From an uncultured Erysipelotrichaceae bacterium (GTDB lineage: Bacteria > Bacillota_I > Bacilli_A > Erysipelotrichales > Erysipelotrichaceae): DNA of 32,000 nucleotides. How positions within the stretch are numbered: position 1 is the first letter of the stretch; each line of letters starts with the position of its first letter. This document shows, one piece after another, positions 8,697-28,790 of the stretch. The notes under the pieces were generated by a model. It saw only the letters and a list, made by a program, of their open reading frames with translations, searched no databases and was not told the DNA's origin. The stretch covers positions 1,860,001-1,892,000 of the forward strand of contig OW818668.1 in NCBI GenBank assembly GCA_942493105.1, in the 5' to 3' direction. The position numbers and the translations under genes are program-made.

Positions 8697-9992
8697 TTGA
8701 TGAAAAGGAATATGATGGGCATAGGTGGTAACATGCGCAAAAAAACAAGAAAAATCAGGCGTCAAGCGGCTTGGATACTAGGGCTAGTATTCTTAATCAT
8801 AACAACTTCGGTGGGAGGATTCATTTTAATCAAGTCTGAAATAGACAAAAAGAACAAAGCGATACAGGAAGAAATAGAAAAAGCACGTGAAGTGAAACGT
8901 GTCGAATTGATCACTGAAGCAAGTTTAATGGTATCCGGTTATTACTATCAGGAAGCGATAGACCTTCTTAAAAGCAATTCTGATATTTATAATGACACAT
9001 TGAAAAACGAAGTAAAAAAGATTGAGGACTTCGTTGCTGATCTTGAACCTTACACCGGACGTATTGAACAAGTCTTTTTTCACACTTTGATTGTTTATCC
9101 TGAATTGGCATTTGGACCTAACAGTTCACAAGCTCAAGGATATAACTATTGGATGACAACCCAATTGGAATTTCAACGCATGTTGCCATTATTGATGGAA
9201 AGAGGCTATGTGTTGATTCGGATCAGTGATTTGTATGATGTTGATTCGCAAGGCAATGTAACCAAAAAAGACCTCTATCTTCCACAGGGAAAGCGACCAC
9301 TGCTCATGTCTGTCGATAATGTTGGATATCCTGAGTCAAGAAAAAAAGATGGTTTTGCTTCACGATTGATCATTGATGAGAATAATGAGGTGACAGCAGT
9401 AATCCGAAATCTTGAGGGAGTTGAAATTGTTTCTCGTACAGCAGAAGTTTTTCCAATTGTGGATGATTTCATAAAAGTCCACCCCGAATTCTCATATCGA
9501 GGCGCAAAAGGAATGATAGGGATCACAGGTAGTTGGGGTGTTATGGGTTATGATCCAAAAATTGCTTCAGAAGCAGCAATTGCGAAAAAAGTAGCTGATC
9601 GTCTAAAAGAGTTGGGTTGGGACTTTGTTTCACATAGCTATACTCATGCTGGTGGTCAGTATTTTAGTATAGATTCAACGCTTGAAGGAGTAAAAGAAGA
9701 TACCGAACTGTTTAAAAAGTGGATTGTTCCGATTATAGGAGATTCCAACGTGTTTATTGCTCCCTTTGGTGTGACTTTAAAAGGAGAACTGTATCAGTAT
9801 ATGATTGATGAAGGATATACGTTCTATCTTAACGTCGACAGGCGTTCACAACCAAGGATCATAGGGAAAAGTGTGTTGATGCCACGCGTCAATTTGGATG
9901 GATTTGTAATGAACAAAGATAAAGCATATATTACAGAGCATTTCTTTGATGTTGATAAAGTTTACGATTCACGAAGACCTGTTTTTCAATAA
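8697..9992 (+). CDS. Membrane-anchored polysaccharide deacetylase-like protein
   Basis: 431-aa ORF with one N-terminal TM (AAWILGLVFLIITTSVGGFILI), a coiled-coil linker and a C-terminal domain with HSYTH (NodB-type motif 2). The ATG at 8733 (MRKKTRK), preceded by aggtgg, is a likelier start than 8697. Confidence 0.55.
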   Translation: MMKRNMMGIGGNMRKKTRKIRRQAAWILGLVFLIITTSVGGFILIKSEIDKKNKAIQEEIEKAREVKRVELITEASLMVSGYYYQEAIDLLKSNSDIYNDTLKNEVKKIEDFVADLEPYTGRIEQVFFHTLIVYPELAFGPNSSQAQGYNYWMTTQLEFQRMLPLLMERGYVLIRISDLYDVDSQGNVTKKDLYLPQGKRPLLMSVDNVGYPESRKKDGFASRLIIDENNEVTAVIRNLEGVEIVSRTAEVFPIVDDFIKVHPEFSYRGAKGMIGITGSWGVMGYDPKIASEAAIAKKVADRLKELGWDFVSHSYTHAGGQYFSIDSTLEGVKEDTELFKKWIVPIIGDSNVFIAPFGVTLKGELYQYMIDEGYTFYLNVDRRSQPRIIGKSVLMPRVNLDGFVMNKDKAYITEHFFDVDKVYDSRRPVFQ

Positions 9993-9999
9993 ATTTATG

Positions 10000-10020
10000 A
10001 ACCTTTAAAAGGTTTTCTTC
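10000..10020 (+). terminator. Weak rho-independent terminator after the deacetylase-like gene
   Basis: aacctt-taa-aaggtt stem-loop followed by tttcttc. The stem is short and AT-rich. Confidence 0.35.
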
Positions 10021-10150
10021 AAAATAGACAGAGAAAAAGGTTTGTATAGCAACATCTTTTTAGACAATTTGCTAAGTTGGTTTTTAAAAAGTTAACAGTG
10101 AAATAGTCTCGAATATGTATTTTGGTCAATTTTTTGATGAATCAAAAATG

Positions 10151-10186
10151 AGAAAATAAAAAGCCTTGAATAAAGGCTTCTTTTGT
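10151..10186 (-). terminator. Rho-independent terminator (possibly bidirectional) immediately 3' of the tRNA fragment
   Basis: Stem aagcctt (10161-10167) pairs with aaggctt (10173-10179). On the minus strand it is followed by tttttattttct, on the plus strand by cttttgt. Confidence 0.55.
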
Positions 10187-10189
10187 AAC

Positions 10190-10206
10190 TGGTGCCCGGG
10201 GACGGA
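10190..10206 (-). other. tRNA 3'-end fragment (T-arm 3' side + acceptor 3' strand + discriminator + CCA); probable att-site remnant marking the island edge
   Basis: Plus strand is tggtgcccggggacgga, whose reverse complement is TCCGTCCCCGGGCACCA. That parses as ..TCCGT C / CCCGGGC / A / CCA. The match to tRNA architecture stops abruptly at 10207 (taataattt), and no D arm or anticodon arm follows. Confidence 0.6.
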
Positions 10207-10548
10207 TAATAATTTAATCGTTCTAAGATTGCATAAGACTGCATAACACTGTATTCTACAGCCTTATTTTACCATAGATGGCATAAGATTTAGCATGATT
10301 TCTTAAGAGCGTGCAAATAGCGTGCAAATGACATCTTGGGATTTTACAGGACACAAGTGGAAAAATAAATCTTAAATTCAATATTCAACCACTTCTGGCA
10401 ATTCCTAATTTGCTTCTGGCTTTTTGTTCCACTTTGATATTCTAAAAAAACTCTACTTTTCTCAACTCACCACCTAGGTTGTAAAATAATATTACTAGAA
10501 CCATTTTTCTTCTTACGTGTATAATTAAGTTAACTTACTGGGGGTAAT

Positions 10549-10968
10549 ATGGTAAAAATAGATGATAACTTGAACTCAGTTTTTGAATCTGTAGCCAAGA
10601 TAGGACAAAGTGTACAACAAAGTTTAAACAAGATGACGAAGGAAGCTAGTCAATATGTTATCGAACACCAAATTGGATTTACCCCCTCAACCCTGATGAT
10701 TAATCCTTATGAGAAATTGATGAGAATTGATATTCCTCCAAACCCACTTATAGCTTTGAATGAGGAATTTCTCATTGAAATAAAGCAGCTAAACTCATCT
10801 ATAGATATAATGAACAAGAAGATAATTGACCTTGAGAATAAAGCTAATGAAACTGAAAGGTCAAATATTAAACGTCAATGGATAATAGCGATAATTTCCA
10901 CTTTACTTGGAGCAATTACAGGTTCAGTTCTTACTATGTTCATTACCCTACTACTCACCCAGAATTAA
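10549..10968 (+). CDS. Hypothetical tail-anchored coiled-coil membrane protein
   Basis: 139-aa ORF with SD gggggt 4 nt upstream and a TATAAT at 10520-10525. It has a coiled-coil-like central part (IDIMNKKIIDLENKANETERSNIKRQ) and a C-terminal TM (WIIAIISTLLGAITGSVLTMFITLLL). I recognise no family. Confidence 0.6.
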   Translation: MVKIDDNLNSVFESVAKIGQSVQQSLNKMTKEASQYVIEHQIGFTPSTLMINPYEKLMRIDIPPNPLIALNEEFLIEIKQLNSSIDIMNKKIIDLENKANETERSNIKRQWIIAIISTLLGAITGSVLTMFITLLLTQN

Positions 10969-11013
10969 ATAGTATGTAGTTGAATGAATAAAAAAACAAG
11001 CGGAGGCAACGTT

Positions 11014-12105
11014 ATGAATAAAGCAACTAATAGAAAAATCAAGAAGTTACCATTTCGAGAAAGGGAAGGTTTAATCAAATTCCTTCCAGACATATTACAA
11101 CTCTTAGGATTTAGTTATGGTTTTTACCTTACATATAATCTTGATAATAAAATTGCTTCGATACTATGTGTATGTTATATATTGCTGTACCTATTTAGGA
11201 TTTTGGGTGTTGCTCAAAGTGATCAAATAAGAAAAGAAAATGAACTCAATACTAATATTGAAGAAACAGAAAAGAAAGACAGAATTGAGATAAGAACTAT
11301 ATGGAGTAATACATTAGTTAAAGTAGCTGAATTATCTGTAATTGCGTACATTATTCTGAATTTGGCTCGACACACTATTCCAATTATTTTTCATATCGGT
11401 TCTGTAGATGCATGGATTGGATTCTCTGGGTCCATTATTTCTGGAATAATTACAATGATGGCTTTATTATACACAATTATGCATGAGGCAAAGATTCGAG
11501 ATGAGGATAAGATACAGAAGAAGATTGAACTCGGATTACAGTTTATGCCAATCATCGAATTATCCTTTGAAAGTGATGGCCAGACAGGTTATGGTTTGAC
11601 ATCTCAAGGAGAACACGATGATGAAGTGGAAAGCTATGTTGCTCAGGCTTCAATAACACTTAATTTTAACAATACCTCTCCTTTTATTGCTCGAGCATTA
11701 TCGTTCACATCTTTCGATGTAGAACAACTTCATCAAAGCGGCTTTGAAGACGTGTTTGTTTACAATAGAAGTGATTTTCTATCAAAGAAATATAGTTTAA
11801 AAACTGAAGCTAATGAATGTATCCAAAACATAAAACTTATTCCAGGAAATGGTAAGAGTAGAACAACGATTACAATACCAATATATGAAGGAAAACTTGA
11901 TGGATTGTATATAAATTGCTTACTTGAGTATTTTGACTATAACAAAGCAATAAAGCATTCTGTTTTAGTCGAAGGCAATTTTTCTATAACATTTGAAGAA
12001 GTTACGCAATCACATGTTTATTTGGATAATGTAGATGTTCTTCAAGAGAAATCAAAGTTTATTAAACTCGAATACTATAGTGGATCATACTCATTTATTG
12101 ACTAG
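11014..12105 (+). CDS. Hypothetical 4-TM membrane protein with ~190-aa C-terminal soluble domain
   Basis: The track ORF starts at 10984, but the ATG at 11014 has GGAGG 7 nt upstream. There are four hydrophobic segments and then a beta-rich-looking C-terminal domain. The gene begins 46 nt after the previous stop, so it is a likely operon partner. I recognise no family. Confidence 0.6.
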   Translation: MNKATNRKIKKLPFREREGLIKFLPDILQLLGFSYGFYLTYNLDNKIASILCVCYILLYLFRILGVAQSDQIRKENELNTNIEETEKKDRIEIRTIWSNTLVKVAELSVIAYIILNLARHTIPIIFHIGSVDAWIGFSGSIISGIITMMALLYTIMHEAKIRDEDKIQKKIELGLQFMPIIELSFESDGQTGYGLTSQGEHDDEVESYVAQASITLNFNNTSPFIARALSFTSFDVEQLHQSGFEDVFVYNRSDFLSKKYSLKTEANECIQNIKLIPGNGKSRTTITIPIYEGKLDGLYINCLLEYFDYNKAIKHSVLVEGNFSITFEEVTQSHVYLDNVDVLQEKSKFIKLEYYSGSYSFID

Positions 12106-12515
12106 TTTTAAACGTATTTCGGGAATTAGTGTTATGACTTAAAGTTATTTCTTATCTATAAAAATAACTAATTAGCTTTTATTATTTAATTTCGAATTAC
12201 TGAATAAAAGATATCTATTAAAGATGGTTTAATCGGCCTTTTGGTACTGAGGTGTGCGACTTTATATTTTGACGTTCCTAAAACGATTTTCTTTGAAGTG
12301 AATTAGTTCGACTTTTTTAGAGTCACAATACTAAAGTTGAATGAATACAAATGGAGAACTAATCCAGTCACAACATTAATTATTAATTAACATGATAAAA
12401 CGAATATATCATGGCTAGGCGAAATATTAAATTAGAAACAAAGATAATGATAATTATTACCAATAGTTTCCAAAAGAAAAATGATCTATAAAAAATAAGG
12501 TTATGGTGAAACAAC

Positions 12516-14384
12516 TTAGAAATCGTCTTCTTTTGTAAGTTTCATTACATATGGTTTCTTTTTAAAATCTTCGATATCGATAACTTTCGGTAATAGACAA
12601 CATTCAGATACAGTGCAAACTCTCGGAATTTCATCATCAATCCACAAATCGGATTCCGAAGACCAAATATATTCAGTAAAAGGAGTTACCAAAATCGAAG
12701 TAATATAGTTAATGTTTTCATTGATAAAGAAGTTTCTACCTTTGTTGTGATTAAGTAACCATTTAACTTTATCTTCAACTTGATGAATACCTTCCAGATT
12801 CTTTTTTTGTCTATGCTGAAGAGTTGCTTTATTTCCCTCTATATATGTTATTGATTGGACATTAGCTTTCAATTCTGCAATAAACAAGATATCTCCAATA
12901 ATGAACGAAATATCAATTTCGCGTGAGGTGTTGTCATTTCCATAAAGTTTCTTTTTGTTTAACCACATTGGCACGCCAACTGTTTTTAATCTTTCTATAA
13001 CAACATCTTCAAACAAGTGACCCTTTTTGTCTTCGGTTGGCTTTAAAAAATGCATCATTGTCCTGAGAATAAAAATTACAGATGCATAATCAACATTTAT
13101 TCCATTGTCAACTGATGGAAAGATTAAGCATCTAGGTCCAATTGTATTTAGTGAAATATTGTTACGGTATGTTCTATTGTATGAGAGGTTCTTAAGTACA
13201 CTTAGTGCATCTTCCTTTGTTAATTTGTAGTCTGAAAGAGATGTAATTTTATCATGAGTTGAAATGAAGATCAAGTTATCAACAAGTTTATCAATGCTCG
13301 AAAATCTCCTGTATGCTCTTTTGAGCAATTCCCTCCCCACAGGTCGATCATCAGTTAAGCAGAAATAAACTTCACTTTGAATCAATGAATATAAAGTCTG
13401 TACGAATGCTTCAATTCTATATCCAAATGTTTTAAGAAACTCTTCACTATAAAATTCATTAGCCACGTAATAGTAGTCAAAGTTAAATGGTACCCATACG
13501 AAATTGTAGATTATCTCTTTATCACCATCATGCAAGAATCTACTTAGAAATAGTTGTTGTTGGGGATAATCGATTTCCGATATCTCATTACTATTATATT
13601 GCGGAACTAATGAAATGCCTTTATTGGCTTCAAGCAATTTGTGATTTAAAAGAACTCCACTCGAACTTGAGAAATCATCAAACTTTGTACCACGTTTATC
13701 ATAAATTCCAATTAACCTATCGGCTTCAGGATCGTTAAGTACAAAGTAACCAGTGCGATTGATGATAAGTTTTCCGCCTTTGTTCAAACGTCTATAACAT
13801 ACAGTTGTGTGCCAATACTCAAAGGCAAGTCTTTCAAGTTGATATATTTCAAGTGCGTCATTATAATCATATTTACCAAGGAAAATCCCTTCTTTTTTTT
13901 CATCAAACATTTTTTTGTTTGCCCCAGTATTAATTAGAGCTTTTTTGAAATGACCAGATGCAATTTCACTAGAGTTTATTAGATGCCCCGGCTTACTCAT
14001 TACTATCTCATTTCCGCAATTGATTTTTCCATATTTTAGAAATGCACATTCTAAAATGTTCCTATAAAGAATTAATGTTTGAGGATCCTCTCCAAAGGTT
14101 TCCTTTGGAGCAATTCTCCTATACAAATGAAACCAATAATAAATACCTTTTCTTGATATCATTTGACACATTTTGTCTTCTATCATATTCTGGATATCTC
14201 GAATCGCATTTACAGCATCGTCAAACTCAAGGGACTCCGAATCATCATATTTTCCAATAAATCTTCCTATAATTAGATTTGCTGGTCTATCTCTGTTTTT
14301 CTTTAAATTTCTTCTCAAGGACAAACCCATATATGAAAAAAGTACATTATGATAATCGAGTCCATAAATTGGTGTAGTTTTCAC
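12516..14384 (-). CDS. Large hypothetical protein with C-terminal NERD/PD-(D/E)xK nuclease-like motif
   Basis: 622-aa ORF with a GTG start. The C-terminal segment GHLFEDVVIERLKTVGV..(x)..SREIDISFIIGDILFIAELKANVQS fits the E...D...E-x-K layout of NERD/restriction-endonuclease-fold domains. The N-terminal ~450 aa has no motif I recognise and no Walker A. Confidence 0.65.
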   Translation of the reverse strand: MKTTPIYGLDYHNVLFSYMGLSLRRNLKKNRDRPANLIIGRFIGKYDDSESLEFDDAVNAIRDIQNMIEDKMCQMISRKGIYYWFHLYRRIAPKETFGEDPQTLILYRNILECAFLKYGKINCGNEIVMSKPGHLINSSEIASGHFKKALINTGANKKMFDEKKEGIFLGKYDYNDALEIYQLERLAFEYWHTTVCYRRLNKGGKLIINRTGYFVLNDPEADRLIGIYDKRGTKFDDFSSSSGVLLNHKLLEANKGISLVPQYNSNEISEIDYPQQQLFLSRFLHDGDKEIIYNFVWVPFNFDYYYVANEFYSEEFLKTFGYRIEAFVQTLYSLIQSEVYFCLTDDRPVGRELLKRAYRRFSSIDKLVDNLIFISTHDKITSLSDYKLTKEDALSVLKNLSYNRTYRNNISLNTIGPRCLIFPSVDNGINVDYASVIFILRTMMHFLKPTEDKKGHLFEDVVIERLKTVGVPMWLNKKKLYGNDNTSREIDISFIIGDILFIAELKANVQSITYIEGNKATLQHRQKKNLEGIHQVEDKVKWLLNHNKGRNFFINENINYITSILVTPFTEYIWSSESDLWIDDEIPRVCTVSECCLLPKVIDIEDFKKKPYVMKLTKEDDF

Positions 14385-14736
14385 GGTCGAACCATTTCCT
14401 TAGTGCAACTTTTCTTTCATTCCATAAACAAATATGGGTCCTATTCTAGTACTCTCATTTTCGCCTATCAAAACATGAATAAACCGCCCATCTATGCGGC
14501 TTTTTACTATATCCTTCTCATTACTTAAAATATTTGATGCCTGGGGACTGATGATGACTATTCCCGACATAAACACTCATAATGCCCATTAAAAGGCTTA
14601 AACGATGATATCTACACTTAAATTATACTAGATTTTCTTTAATTTTCATCCATTTCTAAAAATTCCAAGCAATTTCCAAGCAATTTTAAAATCCTAAGAA
14701 TTAACAGCGATTTAATATAATTTCGCCAGCAATGAC

Positions 14737-15501
14737 CTAGATACTTCTAGTTTTCGCTCTATCCAAAACAATACCATTCAAAACTGGAACGTATTCCTCA
14801 TTATTCATTGTCCAACAGATAATATCACTAAAAAAACTCAAACCCAATTTATTAATTGCGTCTGGGTTTATAAATGCAAAAGTATTTGTTCTATCATAAC
14901 GTTCGTGGAAGCTAGCTTTACTGTAAATTACCGCGGAAACAACATTATTCTTGAGACAATAAAAGAACTGTGAATTTATGGGTGCCCCGTTGTGTTTGAT
15001 GATTTCAGAATTATATATAAATTCAGACTTCACTTCATCATTATGTTCTATGTCATAATGCGTAACTTCATCACTTAGACCAATTAGTATTTCAAATAAT
15101 TCCATTCCATATTCTCGACCCCTGCTCTTGAATTGACCAACAAGCTCTCCTAGATGAATGAAGATAACATAAGGAAGATCTCTTTGCTTGGAATTCACTT
15201 TACTTCTGTTCTTAATAAATTGATCTACTTTATTATTCAATGAATTAGTTATTCGTGGTAGTATGTATGACCTTCTTGCATTTCCGTTAAAGTGACCAGA
15301 TCCGATAAATTTATCGTAACCTTCTATCAGTATATTTCCAAACGCCGGGCAAACACATTCAATATAGACCCCATCAGTTAGAAAATCTGGCCCATAATCA
15401 CTTTTATGATCCTCAGAAACGCTAATATCCCTCTTTAGTCCCAAAAAATAGTCAATACAATTAATTTCATGAGTTTTACTCCAATAATGATTCGATAGCA
15501 C
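14737..15501 (-). CDS. Hypothetical protein (start uncertain; frame open upstream to 15684)
   Basis: 254-aa ORF from a GTG with no SD. The same frame stays open for 61 more codons (..VVTKLDQNNLHFLKINFNQNIELIKTFPDYVFSSQERKFRLEVLKNLYTEACFTK) back to a strong SD (aaaggggga, rc of 15667-15675) and a TATAAT (rc of 15689-15694). A possible PD..E-x-x motif is present (DYGPDF..GVYIECV). I recognise no family. Confidence 0.55.
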   Translation of the reverse strand: MLSNHYWSKTHEINCIDYFLGLKRDISVSEDHKSDYGPDFLTDGVYIECVCPAFGNILIEGYDKFIGSGHFNGNARRSYILPRITNSLNNKVDQFIKNRSKVNSKQRDLPYVIFIHLGELVGQFKSRGREYGMELFEILIGLSDEVTHYDIEHNDEVKSEFIYNSEIIKHNGAPINSQFFYCLKNNVVSAVIYSKASFHERYDRTNTFAFINPDAINKLGLSFFSDIICWTMNNEEYVPVLNGIVLDRAKTRSI

Positions 15502-16667: not shown

Positions 16668-19352
16668 ATGTCACTATCGTGGAATGAAATACAGGATAAT
16701 GCCATTGTCTTTTCGAAACGATGGTCAACTGCAAGTGATGAAAAATCTGAAGCACAATCATTTCTCAATGAATTATTCTCTGTTTTTGGAGTAGACAGAA
16801 AAAGAGTTGGAACATTTGAATATAATACACATCCTAATGACAAAAGTCATTTCATTGACTGTTTTTGGCCAGGTAGAATTATTATTGAAATGAAAAGCAA
16901 AGGAAAATCACTCGATAGGGCATACTCGCAAGCAAAACAATATGCATTTGAGATTAAATCAGATGAGGATTTACCACAATTTATTATGGTTTGTGATTTC
17001 GATCGAATTCACATTTACAACTTGATAACAAACCAAAACTGGGAATTTCAAGTTAAGGATTTGAAAAAGAACGTGAAGAAACTCTCAATTCTCACTGATC
17101 AAGCAACAAAATATAACTTTTTTGTTGATCAAGAGTTGAATACTAAGGCCGCATACAAAATGGCTTTATTGCATGATGAGTTAAAAAGAAACAAATACGT
17201 CGGCCATGACTTGGAAGTCTACCTTGTAAGACTTCTATTCTGTTTATTTGCTGATGATTCTGGCATATTCCCGCACAATTCATTTTACGATTATATCAGT
17301 AAGACTCAGAGCAACGGATCTGATTTGTCTGGAAGATTAGCTGTATTCTTTCAAACTCTAAATACAGACTATGAGTACAGACAATCATCGCTTAGCGATG
17401 AACTAAAGAACTTCCCTTACGTTAACGGAGGACTATTTAGCAAACCGTTGACTTTGCCTGCATTTAGTTCAAAAACAAGAGATATCCTACTTGAGTGTTC
17501 ATCCTTCGATTGGTCCAAAATTTCGCCATCTATTTTTGGCTCTATGTTTCAAGGTGTACTTGATGAAACTCAAAGAAGATCATTAGGTGCTCATTACACA
17601 AGCGAGCAAAATATCCTAAAAGTTATAAAGCCATTATTTCTAGACAATCTTTATCTTGAGTTCGAAAAAGTAAAACATAACATAAAATCTCTAGATGCTT
17701 TTCACCAGAAACTCGGCAAGTTGACTTTTTTCGATCCTGCTTGTGGTTGTGGTAATTTTCTCATCATCGCATATCGAGAATTAAGAATACTAGAGCTTGA
17801 AGTACTAAAAATGAAAATTAACGATAATCAAATGGGTTTCATCGAAATGTGGCAAGATAACATTATTGTTAATGTAGATCAATTTTTCGGCATAGAGTCA
17901 GAAGATTTCCCATGTGAAATTGCCAAAGTTGGAATGTGGCTAATGGACCATCTAATGAATAATATCATCTCCGATTACTATGGTCTTCCATTTTCTAGAT
18001 TACCATTAAAGAAAGGAGCAACTATAATTCACGGAAATGCTTTAAGACTTGATTGGGACAATTCCTTTAATAACATCAAGTTTGATTTTATCATTGGAAA
18101 TCCTCCATTTATTGGAAAAAAATATCAGAATTCTGATCAGAAGAATGATATGAGAATGGTTTTCGGAACAGATTTCTTAGGTGTTGGAAATCTAGATTAT
18201 GTATCTGCTTGGTATAAAAAAACAACTGAATACATGAACAAATTAACAAAAGCAGCCTTCGTATCAACTAATAGTATTGTTCAAGGCGAACAAGTACCAT
18301 ATTTGTGGAAACCGTTATTCAATGAAGGAATTCACTTTGATTTCTGCTATAGAACATTTGAGTGGAAAAATGATGCTAAACTTAACGCCGCAGTACATTG
18401 TGTGATTATAGGATTCTCTAAAAGTGAAAATGTAACTGAAAAATATATTTTTGATGATGTAAATATCAAAATAGTCGAGAACATTAACCCTTATCTAAAT
18501 GATGGGCCCACTGTATTTCTTGAGAATCGATCAAATCCAATATCAAAAGTTAATAAACTAGTTTACGGGAGTTTTGCGCTTGATAATGGAAATTATACTA
18601 TTTCTGAAGACGAATTCACTGAGTTCATAAATAAGGAGCCATATTCACAAGATTTTCTACGACTCTTTATTGGATCAGAGGAGTTCATCAATAACAAAAA
18701 AAGATTCTGTATCTGGTTGAAAGATGCCGATATTGATATTATCCAAAAATGCCCAACTATTATTGATAGAATTAGGAAAGTAAAGGAATGGAGATTAAAA
18801 AGTAATAGAAAGGAAACCAGGTCTGCTGCTGATTTTCCAAGTTTATTCGCAGAAATTCGGCAACCAAAAACAGATTATTTAGCTATTCCAATAACTAGTT
18901 CAGAGCGCCGAAAATATATCCCAATAGGATATCTAAGGGCTAATGTAATTGCCAGTAACCACTTACTAGTATTACCAAATGCATCATTATACGATTTTGC
19001 AATACTTACTTCAGCCATGCATATGGCTTGGGTTAAAACTGTAGCTGGTCGGTTGAAAAGTGATTATAACTATTCAGCAAGAATCGTGTATAATAATTTC
19101 CCGTGGCCTAATTCTAGTAAAGAGCAAATAGATGCAATTTCGTTACTTGGTGAGAGTATTTTACGAGTTCGAGCAAGTTTTACAAACAAGACTCTAGCAG
19201 CATTATATGACCCGTTATTTATGCCTGAAATTTTAATGCAGGCACATTTAAAACTAGACCGTGCGGTTGATAAACTATATGGTAAGACTTTTGAAAGTGA
19301 TGAATCTCGGGCTTCGTATCTTATGATGCTTTATGACAAGTTGATCAAATAG
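16668..19352 (+). CDS. MmeI-family type IIL restriction-modification enzyme (fused endonuclease, N6-adenine methyltransferase and specificity domain)
   Basis: 894 aa. The N-terminus MSLSWNEIQDNAIVFSKRW..SDEKSEAQSFLNELFSVFG is very close to the MmeI N-terminus as I recall it. The nuclease motif D-x9-E-x-K is present (FIDCFWPGRIIIEMK). Methyltransferase motif I is FFDPACGCGNFLI and motif IV is IIGNPPFIG. A long C-terminal TRD follows. Confidence 0.9.
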   Translation: MSLSWNEIQDNAIVFSKRWSTASDEKSEAQSFLNELFSVFGVDRKRVGTFEYNTHPNDKSHFIDCFWPGRIIIEMKSKGKSLDRAYSQAKQYAFEIKSDEDLPQFIMVCDFDRIHIYNLITNQNWEFQVKDLKKNVKKLSILTDQATKYNFFVDQELNTKAAYKMALLHDELKRNKYVGHDLEVYLVRLLFCLFADDSGIFPHNSFYDYISKTQSNGSDLSGRLAVFFQTLNTDYEYRQSSLSDELKNFPYVNGGLFSKPLTLPAFSSKTRDILLECSSFDWSKISPSIFGSMFQGVLDETQRRSLGAHYTSEQNILKVIKPLFLDNLYLEFEKVKHNIKSLDAFHQKLGKLTFFDPACGCGNFLIIAYRELRILELEVLKMKINDNQMGFIEMWQDNIIVNVDQFFGIESEDFPCEIAKVGMWLMDHLMNNIISDYYGLPFSRLPLKKGATIIHGNALRLDWDNSFNNIKFDFIIGNPPFIGKKYQNSDQKNDMRMVFGTDFLGVGNLDYVSAWYKKTTEYMNKLTKAAFVSTNSIVQGEQVPYLWKPLFNEGIHFDFCYRTFEWKNDAKLNAAVHCVIIGFSKSENVTEKYIFDDVNIKIVENINPYLNDGPTVFLENRSNPISKVNKLVYGSFALDNGNYTISEDEFTEFINKEPYSQDFLRLFIGSEEFINNKKRFCIWLKDADIDIIQKCPTIIDRIRKVKEWRLKSNRKETRSAADFPSLFAEIRQPKTDYLAIPITSSERRKYIPIGYLRANVIASNHLLVLPNASLYDFAILTSAMHMAWVKTVAGRLKSDYNYSARIVYNNFPWPNSSKEQIDAISLLGESILRVRASFTNKTLAALYDPLFMPEILMQAHLKLDRAVDKLYGKTFESDESRASYLMMLYDKLIK

Positions 19353-19683: not shown

Positions 19684-19899
19684 TCAGATTTTGAAATCAT
19701 CATCAACATACTCTATTATATCCCCCGGTTGTACATTCAGATATTTACATAGTTTATCAATTACCTCAAGACTTACCATATCATTACTTGAGAACTTAGC
19801 AATTGTATTAAAAGCTAAGTTCAATTCTGTTCTTAAACTTGATTTGTTAATTCCACGTCTATTAAGTGTATCAAGTAATTTATAGTATTTGATTGCCAT
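19684..19899 (-). CDS. XRE/Cro-CI family small HTH transcriptional regulator
   Basis: 71 aa with SD AAGGAGGG. The sequence is typical of a small XRE protein (KLLDTLNRRGINKSSLRTELNLAFNTIAKFSSNDMVSLEVIDKLCKYLNVQPGDIIEY). It is divergent from the zinc-ribbon nuclease operon. Confidence 0.85.
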   Translation of the reverse strand: MAIKYYKLLDTLNRRGINKSSLRTELNLAFNTIAKFSSNDMVSLEVIDKLCKYLNVQPGDIIEYVDDDFKI

Positions 19900-19942
19900 A
19901 ATATTCCCTCCTTAATTCATTATACTTCAAATCTATCGAAAA

Positions 19943-20031
19943 CTATAGAAATTATTGTTGACAATAAAGAAAATCTAGTGTAATCTATATTTATAGAGAG
20001 ATATTCTATACAATGTTATAGATATTCTATA
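19943..20031. promoter_or_regulatory. Divergent promoter region with a dense array of TATAGA/TCTATA half-sites (candidate XRE operators)
   Basis: TTGACA lies at 19958-19963, then a 17-nt spacer ending in tg, then taatct at 19981-19986. Half-sites: tataga 19944-19949, tctata 19983-19988, tataga 19992-19997, tctata 20005-20010, tataga 20017-20022, tctata 20026-20031. Two pairs form palindromes, tataga-N7-tctata and tataga-tat-tctata. Confidence 0.5.
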
Positions 20032-20043
20032 AAAGGAGGGTTT

Positions 20044-21543
20044 ATGACCCAATCACTTAAGGGAATGAGTTTCAAGGTTTGGTGTATTGAGAATCATAAG
20101 GATGAATTGCTTAGTCAGTGGCATCCTACAAAGAATGTAAGGTTGTCTCCGGATTCGATTACTTTCGGTAGTAATAAGAAAGCTTGGTGGGTGTGTTCAA
20201 AGGGACATGAGTGGGAAGCTACCATCTCCTCTCGTACCACGAATCAGCGTGGCTGCCCGTATTGCAAGGGAGTAAAAGTCATCGTCGGAGAAACCGATCT
20301 AGCCACTACTCATCCTACCCTTGCTTTAGAATGGCATCCGACTAAAAATTCGCTGACTCCTAAAGAACTCTCCGCCGGAAGCAACAAGAAAGTTTATTGG
20401 CTGTGTCCTAACGGCCACACCTACCTCAGTTCCCCATCCATAAGGTTACAGCCTTGTGGATGCTCGGTTTGTGCCAGGAAGATTGTAGAGGTAGGGGTCA
20501 ACGATCTGTTGTCTAGAAGCCCTGAGATCGCCTCAGAATGGCATCCGTCTCGTAACGGAGATTTGAAGCCTGAGATGGTGATGTTTCAAAGCAATAAGAA
20601 AGTTTGGTGGCTTTGTAAGAACGGCCATGAGTGGGAAGCTTCTCCAAACTCTAGACAAAAGAATGGATGTCCTATCTGTTACGGAAACACCCACTTCTCA
20701 CTTCGCGAGAAAACTGTCTTCTATTACGTCAAGAAACACTTTCACAACGCCATCAGCAGTTATCAGTTCAAGAGCGATCGTAAGCTTGAGATCGACATCT
20801 TTATTCCGGGGCTCAACATCGGAATTGAATACGATGGAACCTATTACCATCAGGATCCCTTAAAGGACCAACTCAAGGAAACGCTTATTACTGAAGAAGG
20901 CATTCAGCTCATCCGGATCAGAGAACCGAAAACGCCTGAAGTCAAAGACAACAGCACCGTGATCCAGCTCTTCGACCTTAGTGTCGAAGACCTCACACGA
21001 GCCATTAGAGAGCTTTTGGCGCTGCTTGAGAATCTATCTCATACTTCTCTAAGAAACGTCGAAGTCGTCATCAAAGACGATCTAAAGGACATCTATGCCA
21101 TGATGGATGATACGATCATCGAAGGATCGATCGCAGCCAAGAATCCGGCCGTTGCTTACGAGTGGCATCCTACCAAGAACCTGCCTCTAACCCCGGAAAA
21201 GGTCTACGCCAACTCTAAGATGATCGTGTGGTGGTTGTGTCCATTAGGGCATGAATACCAATCCAACGTCAATAACCGAAACAATGGAAAACGTTGCCCC
21301 TTCTGTTACGGGACTCACAGTTTGTTAGTTGGGGAAAACGATCTTCTTTCTCAAAGACCGAAACTGGCCGCTCAGTGGCACCCCACAAAGAACCTTCCTT
21401 TGATGCCGGATCAGATCCGCGCCTACAGTTCAAAGAAGGCTTGGTGGCTATGTGAGCACGGTGAAGAATGGGAATCGAAGATCAGTTCACGAGGCGATAC
21501 TTGCCGATGCAAAAACAAAGCCAATTTTTTTGGAAAATTTTAG
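20044..21543 (+). CDS. Protein with five treble-clef zinc-ribbon repeats (DUF4379-like) flanking a Vsr/DUF559-like PD-(D/E)xK endonuclease core
   Basis: 499 aa with SD aaaggaggg. Five repeats follow the pattern WHP(T/S)(K/R)N..P......S.KK.WW.C..GHEW......R....GCP.C, at aa 22-75, 93-144, 162-213, 370-422 and 441-489. The central aa ~217-295, REKTVFYYVKKHF..KLEIDIFIPGLNIGIEYDGTYYHQ..EEGIQLIRIRE, fits the E..D..IE.DG..H..R layout of Vsr-like/DUF559 nucleases. Confidence 0.75.
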   Translation: MTQSLKGMSFKVWCIENHKDELLSQWHPTKNVRLSPDSITFGSNKKAWWVCSKGHEWEATISSRTTNQRGCPYCKGVKVIVGETDLATTHPTLALEWHPTKNSLTPKELSAGSNKKVYWLCPNGHTYLSSPSIRLQPCGCSVCARKIVEVGVNDLLSRSPEIASEWHPSRNGDLKPEMVMFQSNKKVWWLCKNGHEWEASPNSRQKNGCPICYGNTHFSLREKTVFYYVKKHFHNAISSYQFKSDRKLEIDIFIPGLNIGIEYDGTYYHQDPLKDQLKETLITEEGIQLIRIREPKTPEVKDNSTVIQLFDLSVEDLTRAIRELLALLENLSHTSLRNVEVVIKDDLKDIYAMMDDTIIEGSIAAKNPAVAYEWHPTKNLPLTPEKVYANSKMIVWWLCPLGHEYQSNVNNRNNGKRCPFCYGTHSLLVGENDLLSQRPKLAAQWHPTKNLPLMPDQIRAYSSKKAWWLCEHGEEWESKISSRGDTCRCKNKANFFGKF

Positions 21544-21586
21544 GAAGTGTTTTGTTTATTGCGTATAAAGAACTTGGAGGTTCAAT

Positions 21587-21835
21587 ATGGGTCAACTAAA
21601 TATTGAAGTCACCTTTATAGAAGGTCCAAATAAGGGTCAAGTCTGGATTCACAATAATCTTTCTCTACCCGATATCTTCGAGTTTTACGAAAGCCGTACC
21701 CTTAGATTTATAAAAGAAACAGATGCTTTTGTATTCGATGAAAGTCACAGGATAGAACTCAGCGAATTCATGTATACCGTTATCAAGAAGATTGATCCTT
21801 TTATTGAAACGGTATCCGATCCTCACAAGCACTAA
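21587..21835 (+). CDS. Hypothetical small protein, co-oriented with the zinc-ribbon nuclease gene
   Basis: 82 aa with SD ggagg 7 nt upstream, starting 43 nt after the previous stop. A terminator follows. I recognise no family. Confidence 0.55.
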   Translation: MGQLNIEVTFIEGPNKGQVWIHNNLSLPDIFEFYESRTLRFIKETDAFVFDESHRIELSEFMYTVIKKIDPFIETVSDPHKH

Positions 21836-21900: not shown

Positions 21901-21931
21901 GTCCCATCGTAATAATGGGGCTTTTCCTTTT
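21901..21931 (+). terminator. Rho-independent terminator of the zinc-ribbon nuclease / 82-aa operon
   Basis: gtcccat (21901-21907) pairs with atggggc (21915-21921), followed by ttttcctttt. Confidence 0.6.
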
Positions 21932-22065: not shown

Positions 22066-22150
22066 TTGCGAAGTGGATTATACCGCTTAAAATAAGGGAA
22101 TAATCAAAATCATAAATTCAAAACTCAATGGGACCATTTGGACCCGTAAA
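22066..22150. repeat. Cassette copy A (conserved flanks + hairpin GGGACC-attt-GGACCC)
   Basis: gtggattataccgcttaaaataagggaataatcaaaatcataaattcaaaactcaatGGGACCatttGGACCCgtaaa. It aligns with copies B and C. Relative to them it lacks about 25 nt between gtggat and tataccgc. Confidence 0.8.
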
Positions 22151-22211
22151 CCAACTAAAATAATTATTTTGTATAGTGCGTAAATTTGCATTGTCCCGTT
22201 ACTCAGTAATT

Positions 22212-22247
22212 ACGGGAACCAAAGGTCCCCGTCAGCTTTTTGCTTTT
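22212..22247 (+). terminator. Hairpin ACGGGAACC-aaa-GGTCCCCGT + T-rich tail (terminator-like), copy 1
   Basis: Read directly, followed by cagctttttgcttttg. The identical 25-nt string ttacgggaaccaaaggtccccgtcag recurs at 24060-24084. No plus-strand gene lies upstream, so it may end a small RNA. Confidence 0.4.
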
Positions 22248-23115
22248 GAAAATCAGAAATTCCTTTATTTATAAGGGTTTTTTCAATGTCACTTCTCTCA
22301 AAAATCATTTCAAAAAAAAGATATATTACTTCGAATTAGAACACAAAAAGACGTTATGCAAGTGAAATCTTTTCAAAATAGGTCGATTTATTACTCAAAT
22401 GTGAAAGTAACTCTTATATAGCAATACCAATTGAAACATGGGTTTGACTTTCAGACGTAATTATCACTACCAAGATCAATTAAAAGGTTAATTTTCGGCA
22501 TTTTTACACCTTGATCGATTGGAATTGGGACTTTTTCCCCAACCTAGCCTCCTGGAATACACTATATATAGGGTACTCTACTTTTGAGGTAAAAGTCACC
22601 GATCAAAATTTGAAAAGTTGATTATACGTCTATTTTACTGAAGATTTTCAATGTCTACATGTTGTACCCATAGTTTTTTGCTTTTCTGTTTTTATGGGTA
22701 CAGCTTTTTACTTAGTCTAAATGTTCAGAAAAGCCTTTATTATAACCGTATTAACTACTTTTCGGCTTGCCGAAAATGTTCAAAAAGCGTGGGTTGTACC
22801 CAACGCCTTATCCTGCTTACTAATTTCCAAAAAATATTGATTATCGTATTTCTTGGAAAAACTCATTTTCTGCAGATTTTGATGAGTATTTGGATCTTTC
22901 CCAAAACAATCATAAATATCCTGTTTCATTAGTGAAAACTTATTGAGAACTTGTAACTTGCCAATTCCATTATCACAACTTTTACTCTGAGTATTTAGAT
23001 ACTATAAACGAATATCTCTTGTGCCTTCTATGTCGAAATGTGATATAGAACCTATCCACTGTTGAATACATACATCCACCCTCTGAAGACACTCAAATAA
23101 ATCAAACATACTCAT

Positions 23116-23228
23116 AAAAGTGAACGTGAGTTCATGGGTTTTCAAATTGGGTTATAGGCTTAGAATAAAGAGATAATCGAAATTAAACATGCAAAACTTA
23201 GCGGGAACAGAGTGTTCCCGTAAATGAC
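23116..23228. repeat. Cassette copy B (more diverged; hairpin CGGGAACA-gag-TGTTCCCG)
   Basis: aaaagtgaacgtgagttcatgggttttcaaattgggttataggcttagaataaagagataatcgaaattaaacatgcaaaacttagCGGGAACAgagTGTTCCCGtaaatg. The hairpin lies 45 nt past the stop of the minus-strand HTH gene. Confidence 0.7.
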
Positions 23229-23980: not shown

Positions 23981-24061
23981 TCATTTATATCGAGGATTTA
24001 TCTCAATGTTTACTTTATCATGTTAATCAATCGTTAAAAACTGTCGATATTTACTGTATTT

Positions 24062-24090
24062 ACGGGAACCAAAGGTCCCCGTCAGGTTTT
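24062..24090 (+). terminator. Hairpin ACGGGAACC-aaa-GGTCCCCGT, copy 2 (weaker T tail)
   Basis: The hairpin is identical to the one at 22212-22232. It is followed by caggttttcgag. Confidence 0.3.
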
Positions 24091-24779: not shown

Positions 24780-26110
24780 AATGGTATGTGGGAATTCGAA
24801 ATTAATTAAAATAAAGGGACATATCTACTAGGATAAAGTTACGACACTAACCCAAGGAGAGTTGCCCATGTCCAATTCTACCTTAGATTTATTCAAATTA
24901 CTATCCTCGCCAGAGGAATTACGGGAGTCAATTCGCCAGATGGTTCAAGCAGCGATGAATGATCTGATGAAAGTAGAGTTGGATTCTGTCTTGGGTTATC
25001 AGAAATACAGCCGTAAAACTGAAGGCAGTGATAACTGCCGAAACGGAAGTTATCAGCGCACTTTCGATACTGAATATGGGTCTGTCGAACTGAACGTCCC
25101 CAGAGATCGAAAGAATGAATTCAATACTGCTCTGTTTGATGCTTACCAACGACGCAGTCATTGGTTGGAAGACATGGTGATCGCACTCTATCAGACAGGA
25201 TCTACGACCTCTGAGATCTGTGAGCTGATTGAGAAGTTGTATGGCCACCACTACACTAAGTAGACCATCAGTAATATTACCGAAGCGACTCAGGAGCTGG
25301 TGGAGCGCTTCAATCAGAGAGCGCTCAAGACGCGTTATAGTATCCTGTATATCGATGCCATCTTTACGAAGATTCGCCGTTCTACGGTCTCTAGTGAGGC
25401 GGTATACCTGGTTTTAGGTATTGATGAGGAAGGAAAACGAGAGATTTTGAGTTATTGTATAACGTCTCACGAATCCAGTGAGATCTGGAAGGATGTCTTT
25501 GAAGATCTCAGGAACCGAGGTGTGAAAGAAGTCTTACTGGGCGTCGTGGATGGATTGAAGGGATTAGATGAATCCTTCCTGAGTTATATCCCGAAGGCAG
25601 ATATCCAGCGTTGCACGGTTCACTTTATGCGTAATATCTGTAAGCGCGTTAGAGTTCAGGATCGTCTTGAGGTGGCCACAAATCTGAAAGAAATCTTCGC
25701 CAGTCATTCTGAAGCTCAAGCCTTAGAACGCTGTGAAGCGATGAAACGGAAGTGGAAGAAAGTCTATCCAAAGTTATTCGAAGATTACCTCAACCGGTCA
25801 AATATGTTTACTTACTTCAAGTATCCAAAGATGATTTGGGGATCAATCCGAACTACCAACAAGTTGAAAACACGAATAAGCAGCTGAAGCGTCAAATTAA
25901 GAAGAAGGAACAGTTTCCTAACGAAGGCTCCGCTGAATGCTTTCTGGTCAACTTATTTACGATCCAAAATGAGAAGCTGTCTGGTAGAATCATGAAGGGA
26001 TTTGAATTGGCTTACCCACGATTATCTGAAATGTTTGAAGAAAGAAGTGATTATTCTGGAAGTTCCCTATGAAAAAACACAACTTTCTTTACACTCCCAT
26101 TTGCACACTT
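24780..26110 (+). mobile_element. IS256-family insertion sequence, inactivated (boundaries approximate)
   Basis: It contains the Mutator/IS256-type transposase reading frames. The candidate imperfect terminal inverted repeats are gtaaaatggtatgtg (left, ~24775-24790) and acactcccatttgcac (right, ~26091-26106). They match only partially, so the ends are uncertain. Confidence 0.55.
24868..26072 (+). pseudogene. IS256-family (Mutator-type) transposase pseudogene: one in-frame TAG and one frameshift
   Basis: The three track ORFs 24862-25263, 25300-25887 and 25752-26072 join into one transposase (..NGSYQRTFDTEYGSVELNVPRDRKNEF.. / ..YSILYIDAIFTKIR..VYLVLGIDEEGKREIL.. / ..VENTNKQLKRQIKKKEQFPNEGSA..). 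The first two are in the same frame, separated by TAG at 25261-25263. The third needs a 1-nt shift near 25860 (IRTTN|QVENTN). Confidence 0.85.
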
Positions 26111-27922: not shown

Positions 27923-28790
27923 CTATTGTTTGGCTTTATCTCTTGAAAGTTCCTCCCACCTGGTTATAATCACGTCCATATATCTCGGATCCAGTTTCAT
28001 CGCATAGCATTTCCGCTCTAATCGAAATGCAACTATGAGTGTTGAGCCAATGCCTGCGAAGGGTTCGTAGACGAGTTGACCCTTTATGCTAGAGTTCTTA
28101 ATCAGCTTTCCAATGAGCGGGATGCGCTTCATCGTTGGATGCAGATTACTTTTAAGCGGCTTATTTTCATAGAGGACGGTAGATTGCTGATCATCCATGA
28201 TCTTCTTGAGGATCTCAACGAGTTCTTCTTTCTTCATCTTCTCAATACTTTGAGTTTCGTCAAACACGGTGGCCTGGATCCGGTCATCCACGAATTAATG
28301 ACCTACCCCTTCCTTCCAACCATACAAAATCGGCTCATTTCTCAAGTGGTAATCATGCCGGTTGAGGTTGAACGAATTTTTCAACCAAATCAAATTCTTG
28401 GAGAATTTGAATCCGGCTTTCTGGAAGGCATAATCGAAGCTCAGTCGCTCAACATCACTATGTAAGACATAGATGACTCCATCGATCTTCAGGTGTTCAT
28501 ATGCGTGCGTATACATGGCTAAGATGAAATGATAGAAGTTGTTGCTGTACATGTGATCGTTGAGGATCTCATTATTCTTCCTTTGGCCATTTTTGAACAT
28601 CTTGTGGTAGTCAATCTTGTTTTCGTAGTTGACGTTGTATGGAGGATCAGTAACGATCAAGCCAGCCAGCAATCTTTACATCAGCATCAATTCATCGTTT
28701 GGATCAGTGCTATCGCCATACATCAACCGATGCTCACCGAGCTGATAGATACAGCCTCTTTTTGAATTCGGTTCCTCTATTGAGTAAATA
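27923..28790 (-). pseudogene. Beta-class (DPPY..FxGxG order) DNA N6-adenine/N4-cytosine methyltransferase pseudogene, two in-frame TAA stops and no start codon
   Basis: One continuous minus-strand frame reads ..KRGCIYQLGEHRLMYGDSTDPNDELMLM*RLLAGLIVTDPPYNVNY...ILYGWKEGVGH*FVDDRIQATVF..HPTMKRIPLIGKLIKNSS..VYEPFAGIGSTLIVAF..LDPRYMDVIITRWEE. The stops are at 28676-28678 and 28295-28297. No ATG lies upstream of KRGCIYQLGEHRL. Confidence 0.8.

Follow-up and report, generated by a model that had tools for sequence, protein, structure and literature searches.

The window analysed here, a stretch of 32,000 nucleotides (nt) from an uncultured Erysipelotrichaceae bacterium (contig OW818668.1), contains a cassette of three genes at positions 19684 to 21835: a regulator gene of the XRE family, a gene for a 499-amino-acid (aa) protein that joins zinc ribbons to a nuclease core, and a gene for an 82-aa protein. 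These genes very probably constitute a repressor-gated operon for an EDxHD/Vsr-type DNA endonuclease with a zinc-ribbon array. We favour, with a probability of about 0.45, the reading that the nuclease is of the homing-endonuclease type and that the cassette serves homing or exclusion; in broader terms, the cassette may act selfishly, for exclusion or in defence. The nuclease adds a member to a large branch of EDxHD/Vsr nucleases that was noticed only recently. As far as PADLOC and literature searches show, the regulated three-gene cassette with an exchangeable nuclease appears to be undescribed.

The zinc-ribbon nuclease

All three open reading frames (ORFs) that the first-pass annotation of this DNA had claimed were present. 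The 71-aa repressor gene lies on the minus strand at 19684-19899, divergent from the nuclease operon, and its product matched HTH_26 (PF13443, E 2.7e-15). The nuclease gene (20044-21543) and the 82-aa gene (21587-21835) are on the plus strand; the latter has its own GGAGG and starts 43 nt after the nuclease stop codon.

The nuclease core occupies residues 216-300 (20689-20943, plus strand), for which no above-threshold match was found in Pfam. This stretch was kept in 100 of 120 homologues, always between ribbons, and it contains the motifs EIDIF and IEYDG..YYH. When a profile from 30 cores was compared with PDB sequences, it matched one solved structure, 3R3P, the catalytic domain of I-Bth0305I (E 7.7e-4). 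I-Bth0305I is the prototype of the EDxHD homing endonucleases, with the motif E170, D196, N208, H213 and D222; the last four residues have been equated with D51, H64, H69 and D97 of Vsr, and E170 with Vsr E25 (PMC3239194). In the 3R3P alignment, D196, N208, H213 and D222 fell on D251, D264, H269 and D275 of the window protein, column by column, and E222 was assigned as the counterpart of E170 from its position on the N-terminal helix only. All EDxHD residues are thus kept (E222, D251, D264, H269 and D275). Across the 30-core alignment S219, E222, D251, E262, D264, G265 and H269 were invariant, and E249, K278, R291 and E294 nearly so. The annotation's proposal of an endonuclease core with conserved catalytic residues is upheld by this invariance of E, D and H.

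Judged from these alignments, the core belongs to the Vsr-like EDxHD lineage, and its catalytic residues are intact. Several Pfam families matched the 30 cores below threshold (MTES_1575 in 27, DUF2726 in 23, PvuRts1I_N in 18 and DUF559 in 15). The window core itself scored 16.4 bits against a cut-off of 38.2 for MTES_1575 (PF18741) and 12.6 bits against 20.6 for DUF559 (PF04480), which indicates a relationship to these two families at clan level only. In the AlphaFold2 model of the 499-aa protein (mean predicted local distance difference test score, pLDDT, 89.6; predicted template modelling score 0.65), the core runs in the order helix-strand-strand-strand-helix-strand, as in restriction-endonuclease-like folds. 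The ribbons dominated a Foldseek search of the full-length model against the PDB, and matches to PD-(D/E)xK nucleases were weak (E >0.01). Residues 301-362 (20944-21129, plus strand) extend the core by a short strand and two long helices; this extension is acidic and conserved in the family, and is possibly a dimerisation element.

Five copies of PF14311 (DUF4379, 'probable treble clef zinc finger') were detected in the protein (E 4.4e-86, 283 bits against a cut-off of 24.5). Ribbons 1-3, C-H-C-C treble-clef modules at residues ~15-76, 77-146 and 147-215, are encoded at 20086-20688, and ribbons 4 and 5, at residues 363-424 and 425-499, at 21130-21540, all on the plus strand. The reported order of three CHCC repeats, a Vsr/DUF559-like core and two further repeats is therefore borne out, and the quoted motifs, WHPTKN, WW.C..GHEW and CP.C, are all present. 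Ribbons 1-3 are basic, with isoelectric points (pI) of ~7-9. Ribbon 5 has an altered ligand spacing (CEHGEEW ... CRC), with GEEW in place of GHEW. The annotation had described its second knuckle as degenerate. The CRC is indeed there, but CRC and GEEW were identical in all five orthologues compared, so they represent a conserved feature rather than decay.

The C-H-C-C ligands were kept across 1116 DUF4379 repeats from 120 homologues. In the logo of these repeats, N1, W14, N19, W36, W37, C39, H43, R52, C58 and C61 form an invariant scaffold, and positions 48, 50, 51, 53, 54 and 56, around the invariant Arg on a short helix, are among the most variable. Such variability is the pattern expected for a putative recognition surface. 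We looked for diversifying selection on the ribbons and detected none; the ratio of nonsynonymous to synonymous substitution rates (dN/dS) was at most 0.13 in every domain of the nuclease. The G+C content of the nuclease gene is 45-47%, compared with 29-33% in the flanks, which may reflect foreign origin or the richness of the ribbons in Trp, Cys, Gly and Pro.

Homologues of the 499-aa protein number more than 8000, and most have 700-860 aa, ~40% identity and 8-10 ribbons; names among them include 'zinc-ribbon domain-containing protein' and, in IMG, 'very-short-patch-repair endonuclease'. A Foldseek search against predicted viral structures gave 166 matches at E <= 0.001, including Marseillevirus 'restriction endonucleases', Listeria phage 'treble clef' proteins and the 'homing endonuclease' of Staphylococcus phage SEP9 and Bacillus phage Eldridge. 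By tblastn, relatives were found in 110 phage records, several labelled 'Hef-like homing endonuclease', and in 157 plasmid records with up to 16 copies per plasmid. ORF16 of Xanthomonas phage OP1, which lies between fragments annotated as tape-measure protein, matched residues 19-294 of the window protein, a stretch that covers three ribbons and the core (BLASTP, E 2e-16). Another relative, gp303 of Tenacibaculum phage PTm1, lies between capsid and baseplate genes. A 2025 study of phage group II introns described intron-borne endonucleases with three to five CapR/DUF4379/DUF723-like domains and an EDxHD/Vsr-like domain, and regarded this architecture as that of a large outgroup of EDxHD/Vsr homing endonucleases that had gone unrecognised (PMC12350094). 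The first-pass annotation had known of no assigned function for this domain combination. That statement does not hold, as the architecture is common, is annotated as homing endonuclease in phages and was described in 2025 (PMC12350094).

The window protein and I-Bth0305I share a homologous core in which all five motif positions align, and both carry attached modules for DNA binding, putative ones in the window protein (PDB 3R3P; PMC3239194). They differ in other respects. The DNA-binding part of I-Bth0305I is of the NUMOD/helix-turn-helix (HTH) type and its nuclease is C-terminal, whereas the window protein has zinc ribbons and a nuclease in mid-protein, followed by the helical extension and two ribbons. 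I-Bth0305I is encoded by an intron in phage recA, whereas the window gene stands free in a bacterial island with a repressor and a small partner. OP1 ORF16, PTm1 gp303 and the intron enzymes (PMC12350094) share with the window protein at least three ribbon modules followed by the same nuclease core. However, the WHP..KN signature is absent from the phage ribbons, the phage proteins end without C-terminal ribbons and are accompanied by neither an XRE gene nor an 82-aa partner, and these phage and intron relatives sit among phage structural genes or inside introns.

Proteins of plasmids and integrative and conjugative elements (ICEs) in Bacillota and Actinomycetota, as well as the DUF4379 'restriction endonucleases' of giant viruses, belong to the same family, with ~40% identity and the core between ribbons. 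The multi-ribbon plasmid and ICE relatives are larger than the window protein (700-1400 aa, 8-10 or more ribbons). They adjoin Mob_Pre, relaxase and SSB, FtsK/SpoIIIE or tyrosine recombinase genes. At the loci of distant homologues that we inspected, in conjugative or mobilisable elements and in phages, neither a divergent XRE gene nor an 82-aa gene was found, with partial exceptions at two loci. At one of these (L039) an HTH gene lies upstream on the same strand. The other (L019, 6001-8178) encodes a 725-aa protein, P0069, with eight ribbons and a fused HTH_3/HTH_31 domain; this gene adjoins relaxase and SSB genes and provides an independent link of the nuclease family to XRE-type DNA binding. 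The association with XRE and the small partner is therefore a property of one narrow clade. A single-protein scan of representative genomes returned only three loci, all distant. To our knowledge, no DUF4379-ribbon member of the nuclease family has been characterised biochemically.

Control region and composition of the cassette

The divergent control region spans 19900-20043, as read from the sequence and a repeat search. It contains a -35 element TTGACA (19958-19963) and, at 17 nt spacing, a weak -10 element TAATCT (19981-19986), with GGAGG at 20035-20039 ahead of the nuclease gene. Three palindromes are present: TCTATC-N6-TATAGA (19932-19949), TCTATATTTATAGA (19984-19997) and TCTATA-N6-TATAGA (20005-20022). 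The earlier description of a consensus-like promoter buried in palindromic sites is accurate for the -35 element and the palindromes but too generous for the -10 element.

The XRE gene was present in every cassette copy. At least three variants were distinguished, differing mainly in the predicted recognition region, and each was paired with its own palindromes in the same layout on either side of a conserved TTGACA. The variant in the window and in two other loci (L008 and L032) goes with TCTATA-N6-TATAGA, that of L020 with AGATATTTGAAA / TTTCAAATATCT, and that of L001, L007 and L011 with TAATTAATGTTAG / CTAATATTAATTA. Among the nuclease genes, that of L007 is nearest to the window gene (90% nucleotide identity), but the window regulator and operators are of the L008 type; the breakpoint of this swap of regulatory modules is at the nuclease start codon. 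This co-variation of XRE and palindromes is good comparative evidence that XRE controls the operon, in agreement with the regulatory role assigned to it from the start, and suggests that XRE binds the palindromes.

The three genes recurred in seven contexts with unrelated flanks as a horizontally mobile unit of ~2.2 kb. Wherever the context of the 82-aa gene was readable among close relatives, it followed a nuclease gene of ~500 aa with an HTH_26 gene divergent upstream. Flanks were readable in six contexts, five of which adjoin defence genes. The neighbour is an MmeI type IIG restriction-modification (R-M) gene in the window; a type III R-M system in an integrase-bearing island in L001; and HATPase_c_3 in L007. 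In L008, BREX genes (BrxA, BrxB, BrxC and PglX) are on one side and ParB, ParA and integrase genes on the other. Abi_2 and an EcoRI-methylase fragment adjoin the cassette in L011, with a TIR gene (TIR_2) nearby, and PIN_12 and a gene for a 1208-aa protein of no assigned function adjoin it in L020. The remaining locus, L032, is a short contig. The annotation had proposed that the three genes are linked to one another and to defence genes. This is true of a narrow clade, in which most islands carry defence genes, but not of the distant homologues, which have neither XRE nor the 82-aa partner.

Nucleotide and translated similarity among the loci ends at the cassette edges. We found no terminal repeats or target-site duplications around the cassette. 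A scan of viral contigs returned no cassette, blastn of the cassette against phage records gave no match, and against plasmids it gave only short matches to ribbons.

The 82-aa protein is mildly acidic (pI 5.0) and had no match in Pfam, NCBIfam, PADLOC or PHROGs. Among 5.8 billion proteins, only seven 90% clusters represent it. When 1.84 billion representative proteins were searched with a profile, about nine small distant relatives were added, with which it shares the invariant residues E7, F10, G13, Q18, W20 and N24; the contigs of two of these relatives were too short for informative context. Two larger proteins matched by the profile, P0171 and P0172, look like chance matches to repetitive proteins and were set aside. 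A metagenome scan with the 82-aa alignment returned two loci, one of them already known. The dN/dS was 0.06-0.16 for the 82-aa gene and 0.07-0.12 for the nuclease gene, with dS from 0.4 to above 1. Values of about 0.1 reflect strong purifying selection, indicating that both are real genes and not chance ORFs. AlphaFold2 modelled the 82-aa protein poorly (pLDDT 53), and neither a family nor a fold could be assigned to it. We also considered a DNA mimic and rejected it, as the net charge is modest and not conserved across members.

A sister cassette contains a different nuclease. At L028 (6590-8249), an HTH_26 gene homologous to the window XRE gene is divergent from a two-gene operon that ends in a homologue of the 82-aa gene (P0167). 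When this locus was compared with the window cassette by tblastx, the XRE and small genes matched and the middle gene did not. The middle gene encodes a 290-aa GIY-YIG-like protein, whose only matches were PF01541 (E 3.7e-4, 21.2 bits against a cut-off of 22.6) and phrog_5123, 'homing endonuclease with GIY-YIG motif' (E 0.002). C5-methyltransferase, HNH_2 and HATPase_c_3 genes lie on one side of this cassette, the HATPase_c_3 flank being shared with L007, and ParB_N lies on the other. The XRE and small-protein genes are thus the constant frame of a cassette whose nuclease can be exchanged, and each of the two nucleases is of a class known from homing endonucleases. The exchange parallels the replacement of T4 mobC/mobE by SegH/Hef, as worded in a title cited in PMC3239194.

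This arrangement bears on the small protein, which had been proposed as an inhibitor or immunity partner of the nuclease. Since the 82-aa protein is retained with a different nuclease fold in L028, a role alongside the regulator, or in dealing with the consequences of cleavage, is more likely than inhibition specific to one fold, and the proposal is weakened accordingly.

Homing, exclusion or defence

We propose the following mechanism. The ribbons would read DNA module by module, in analogy to the NUMOD or CapR-like domains found in phage homing endonucleases, and would together specify a long target site. In an established host, XRE bound to the palindromes would keep the nuclease off. On entry into a repressor-free cell, a burst of nuclease would cut target-bearing DNA, either a cassette-free allele or a competing mobile element. 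Repair could then copy the cassette and neighbouring island genes by gene conversion (homing), or the cut DNA would be lost (exclusion), and the repressor would afterwards shut the operon off.

Homing or exclusion is favoured because four lines of evidence fit it: the distribution of the family, recombination boundaries that are sharp, the exchange of one nuclease class for another in a single slot, and published work on phages. The distribution is of a selfish type, with several copies on one plasmid and with relaxases, FtsK/SpoIIIE proteins and recombinases as neighbours. In phages, nuclease genes are reported to mark boundaries of genetic exchange (PMC10448857).

The type II R-M systems controlled by C proteins resemble the cassette in that a small HTH protein and palindromic operators time a nuclease on a mobile unit, which may allow a burst in a naive host. 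They differ from it in having a methyltransferase and a co-oriented upstream C gene, whereas the cassette has no methyltransferase and its HTH_26 regulator is divergent. The conserved unit of the cassette comprises the three genes only, and the neighbouring methylases vary by locus.

Several points weigh against homing or exclusion. Cleavage, a target site and homing by the window nuclease are all proposed from sequence. The described free-standing homing endonucleases have no dedicated repressor or conserved small partner, unlike the nuclease of the cassette. A cassette-free 'empty' allele was not found among the loci; every one of the eight contexts that could be read for the small protein's close relatives contained a nuclease, which so looks obligatory rather than an occasional invader. 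The GIY-YIG assignment falls under the curated Pfam cut-off and comes from one locus family. DNA binding by the ribbons is itself conjectural, since the only solved DUF4379 domains are in kinetoplastid (Trypanosoma) mitoribosomal proteins and assembly factors (6SGA chain Fd and 6YXX chain E2). The defence genes beside five of the six readable zinc-ribbon contexts and beside the GIY-YIG-like locus fit a defensive role equally well.

This last point leads to the strongest competing account, which we consider somewhat unlikely: a dedicated three-component defence against phages or plasmids, in which XRE sets expression, the nuclease, an exchangeable effector, degrades invader DNA, and the 82-aa protein serves as sensor, as adaptor or as a brake released by infection. 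The neighbourhoods agree with it, as they include MmeI type IIG and type III R-M, BREX, Abi_2/TIR_2, HATPase_c_3, and PIN_12 with the 1208-aa protein, and the variant cassette of L028 adjoins C5-methyltransferase, HNH_2 and HATPase_c_3 genes. So do the long-term purifying selection on all parts, the constant presence of the nuclease (eight of eight readable contexts) and the swap of an effector inside a conserved frame of XRE and small protein, as in many defence systems. However, adjacency is weak evidence because islands collect selfish DNA too, and these contexts, all from a narrow group of uncultured Bacillota, are possibly not independent of one another. No model in PADLOC-DB 2.0 (2023 library) matched XRE, the nuclease or the 82-aa protein. 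No mechanism to tell self from non-self is evident, because the cassette has no methyltransferase, and members of the wider nuclease family reside in phages, giant viruses and conjugative elements rather than in defence islands.

More speculatively, and in our view doubtfully, the three proteins would make up a new family of mobile systems for defence or exclusion whose homing-endonuclease-type effectors can be exchanged. The DUF4379 array would in that case read DNA in modules, potentially re-codable ones, each ribbon recognising a few base pairs through the variable residues around the invariant Arg, and thousands of natural arrays (3 to >10 modules) could be decoded.

It is improbable that the cassette is a toxin-antitoxin-like addiction module that stabilises the island, with the nuclease as toxin, the 82-aa protein as antitoxin and XRE as autoregulator. 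In colicin DNase-immunity and type II toxin-antitoxin pairs, as in the cassette, a nuclease gene is followed, under a repressor, by the gene of a small acidic protein of ~80 aa. The arrangement of the cassette, a nuclease and a small mildly acidic protein in one operon, recalls the colicin pairs; its promoter would be tightly repressed, as read from the operator layout, and it is carried on mobile islands. However, the window nuclease has no translocation or receptor domain, and a 499-aa nuclease with five putative DNA-reading modules is unlike known type II toxins. One family of small proteins accompanies two unrelated nuclease folds, which is unexpected for a specific antitoxin. The charge of the small protein is not conserved in distant members, P0168 being about neutral. 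The regulator is a separate divergent gene rather than the antitoxin, and no toxin-antitoxin family was matched in Pfam or NCBIfam.

An RNA-directed role, with ribbons that bind RNA and a protein whose substrate is RNA or a ribonucleoprotein, is very improbable; the mitoribosomal location of the solved DUF4379 domains speaks for it, but characterised nucleases of the EDxHD/Vsr lineage cut DNA (PMC3239194) and the phage relatives occupy the positions of homing endonucleases. An ordinary very-short-patch (Vsr) mismatch-repair endonuclease, suggested by the shared fold class and by the IMG name of cluster members, is likewise very improbable, since the Vsr model PF03852 matched only one of the 30 cores (E 0.016), the protein has five extra zinc ribbons and the distribution of a mobile element, and the cassette has no C5 (Dcm-type) methyltransferase, its neighbour in the window being an N6-adenine MmeI enzyme.

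The nuclease family spans bacteria, plasmids, phages and giant viruses, and the cassette, being compact, sharply delimited, apparently functional and equipped with its own switch, is a convenient entry point to it. The questions it opens are what the ribbons read, whether homing-type nucleases shape the shuffling of defence islands, and whether a gated nuclease without a methylase serves exclusion or defence. Should the ribbons turn out to read DNA in modules, the family would also gain interest for protein engineering.

Surroundings of the cassette in the window

The known R-M gene next to the cassette was identified correctly by the first-pass annotation. The upstream gene at 16668-19352 encodes a complete MmeI-type IIG enzyme in which none of the five MmeI domains is missing, and its full length was matched by the type IIG model of PADLOC. 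Directly upstream of it, at 8697-15501, are five ORFs (431, 139, 373, 622 and 254 aa) with 29-33% G+C. None had a match in Pfam, and PADLOC gave only two weak matches, both to the 254-aa ORF (E ~0.002-0.003). They may be uncharacterised island or defence genes.

Downstream of the cassette, a transposase of the IS256/Mutator family is broken into two ORFs, as is an N6/N4 DNA methyltransferase (24862-25887 and 27923-28672). Both look decayed and mark ~8.7-28.7 kb of the window as a variable island.

A terminator-like hairpin with a T-run lies at 21901-21931 on the plus strand, 66 nt past the stop codon of the 82-aa gene; it was identified by pattern match only. Farther on, at 22756-22832, is a conserved two-hairpin element that was present in six of the seven cassette contexts. 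It is ~75 nt long, with the conserved tail CCTTATCYTGCTWA, and compensatory changes were seen in 6 of 12 predicted pairs. It had no match in Rfam. The other copies are at L007 3967-4031, L008 10479-10553, L011 ~10296-10360, L001 ~11848-11912 and L020 ~11846-11910. The element is ~50-230 nt past the small gene in these loci and ~920 nt past it in the window. The intergenic DNA to the right of the cassette contains a short palindromic repeat, GGGACCnnnnGGnCCCGTAA, at 22130-22234, 23204-23223 and 24060-24084 (6 matches against 0.22 expected). This repeat resembles repetitive extragenic palindromic sequences or miniature inverted-repeat transposable elements, and it explains part of the extra ~690 bp that separate the small gene from the two-hairpin element.

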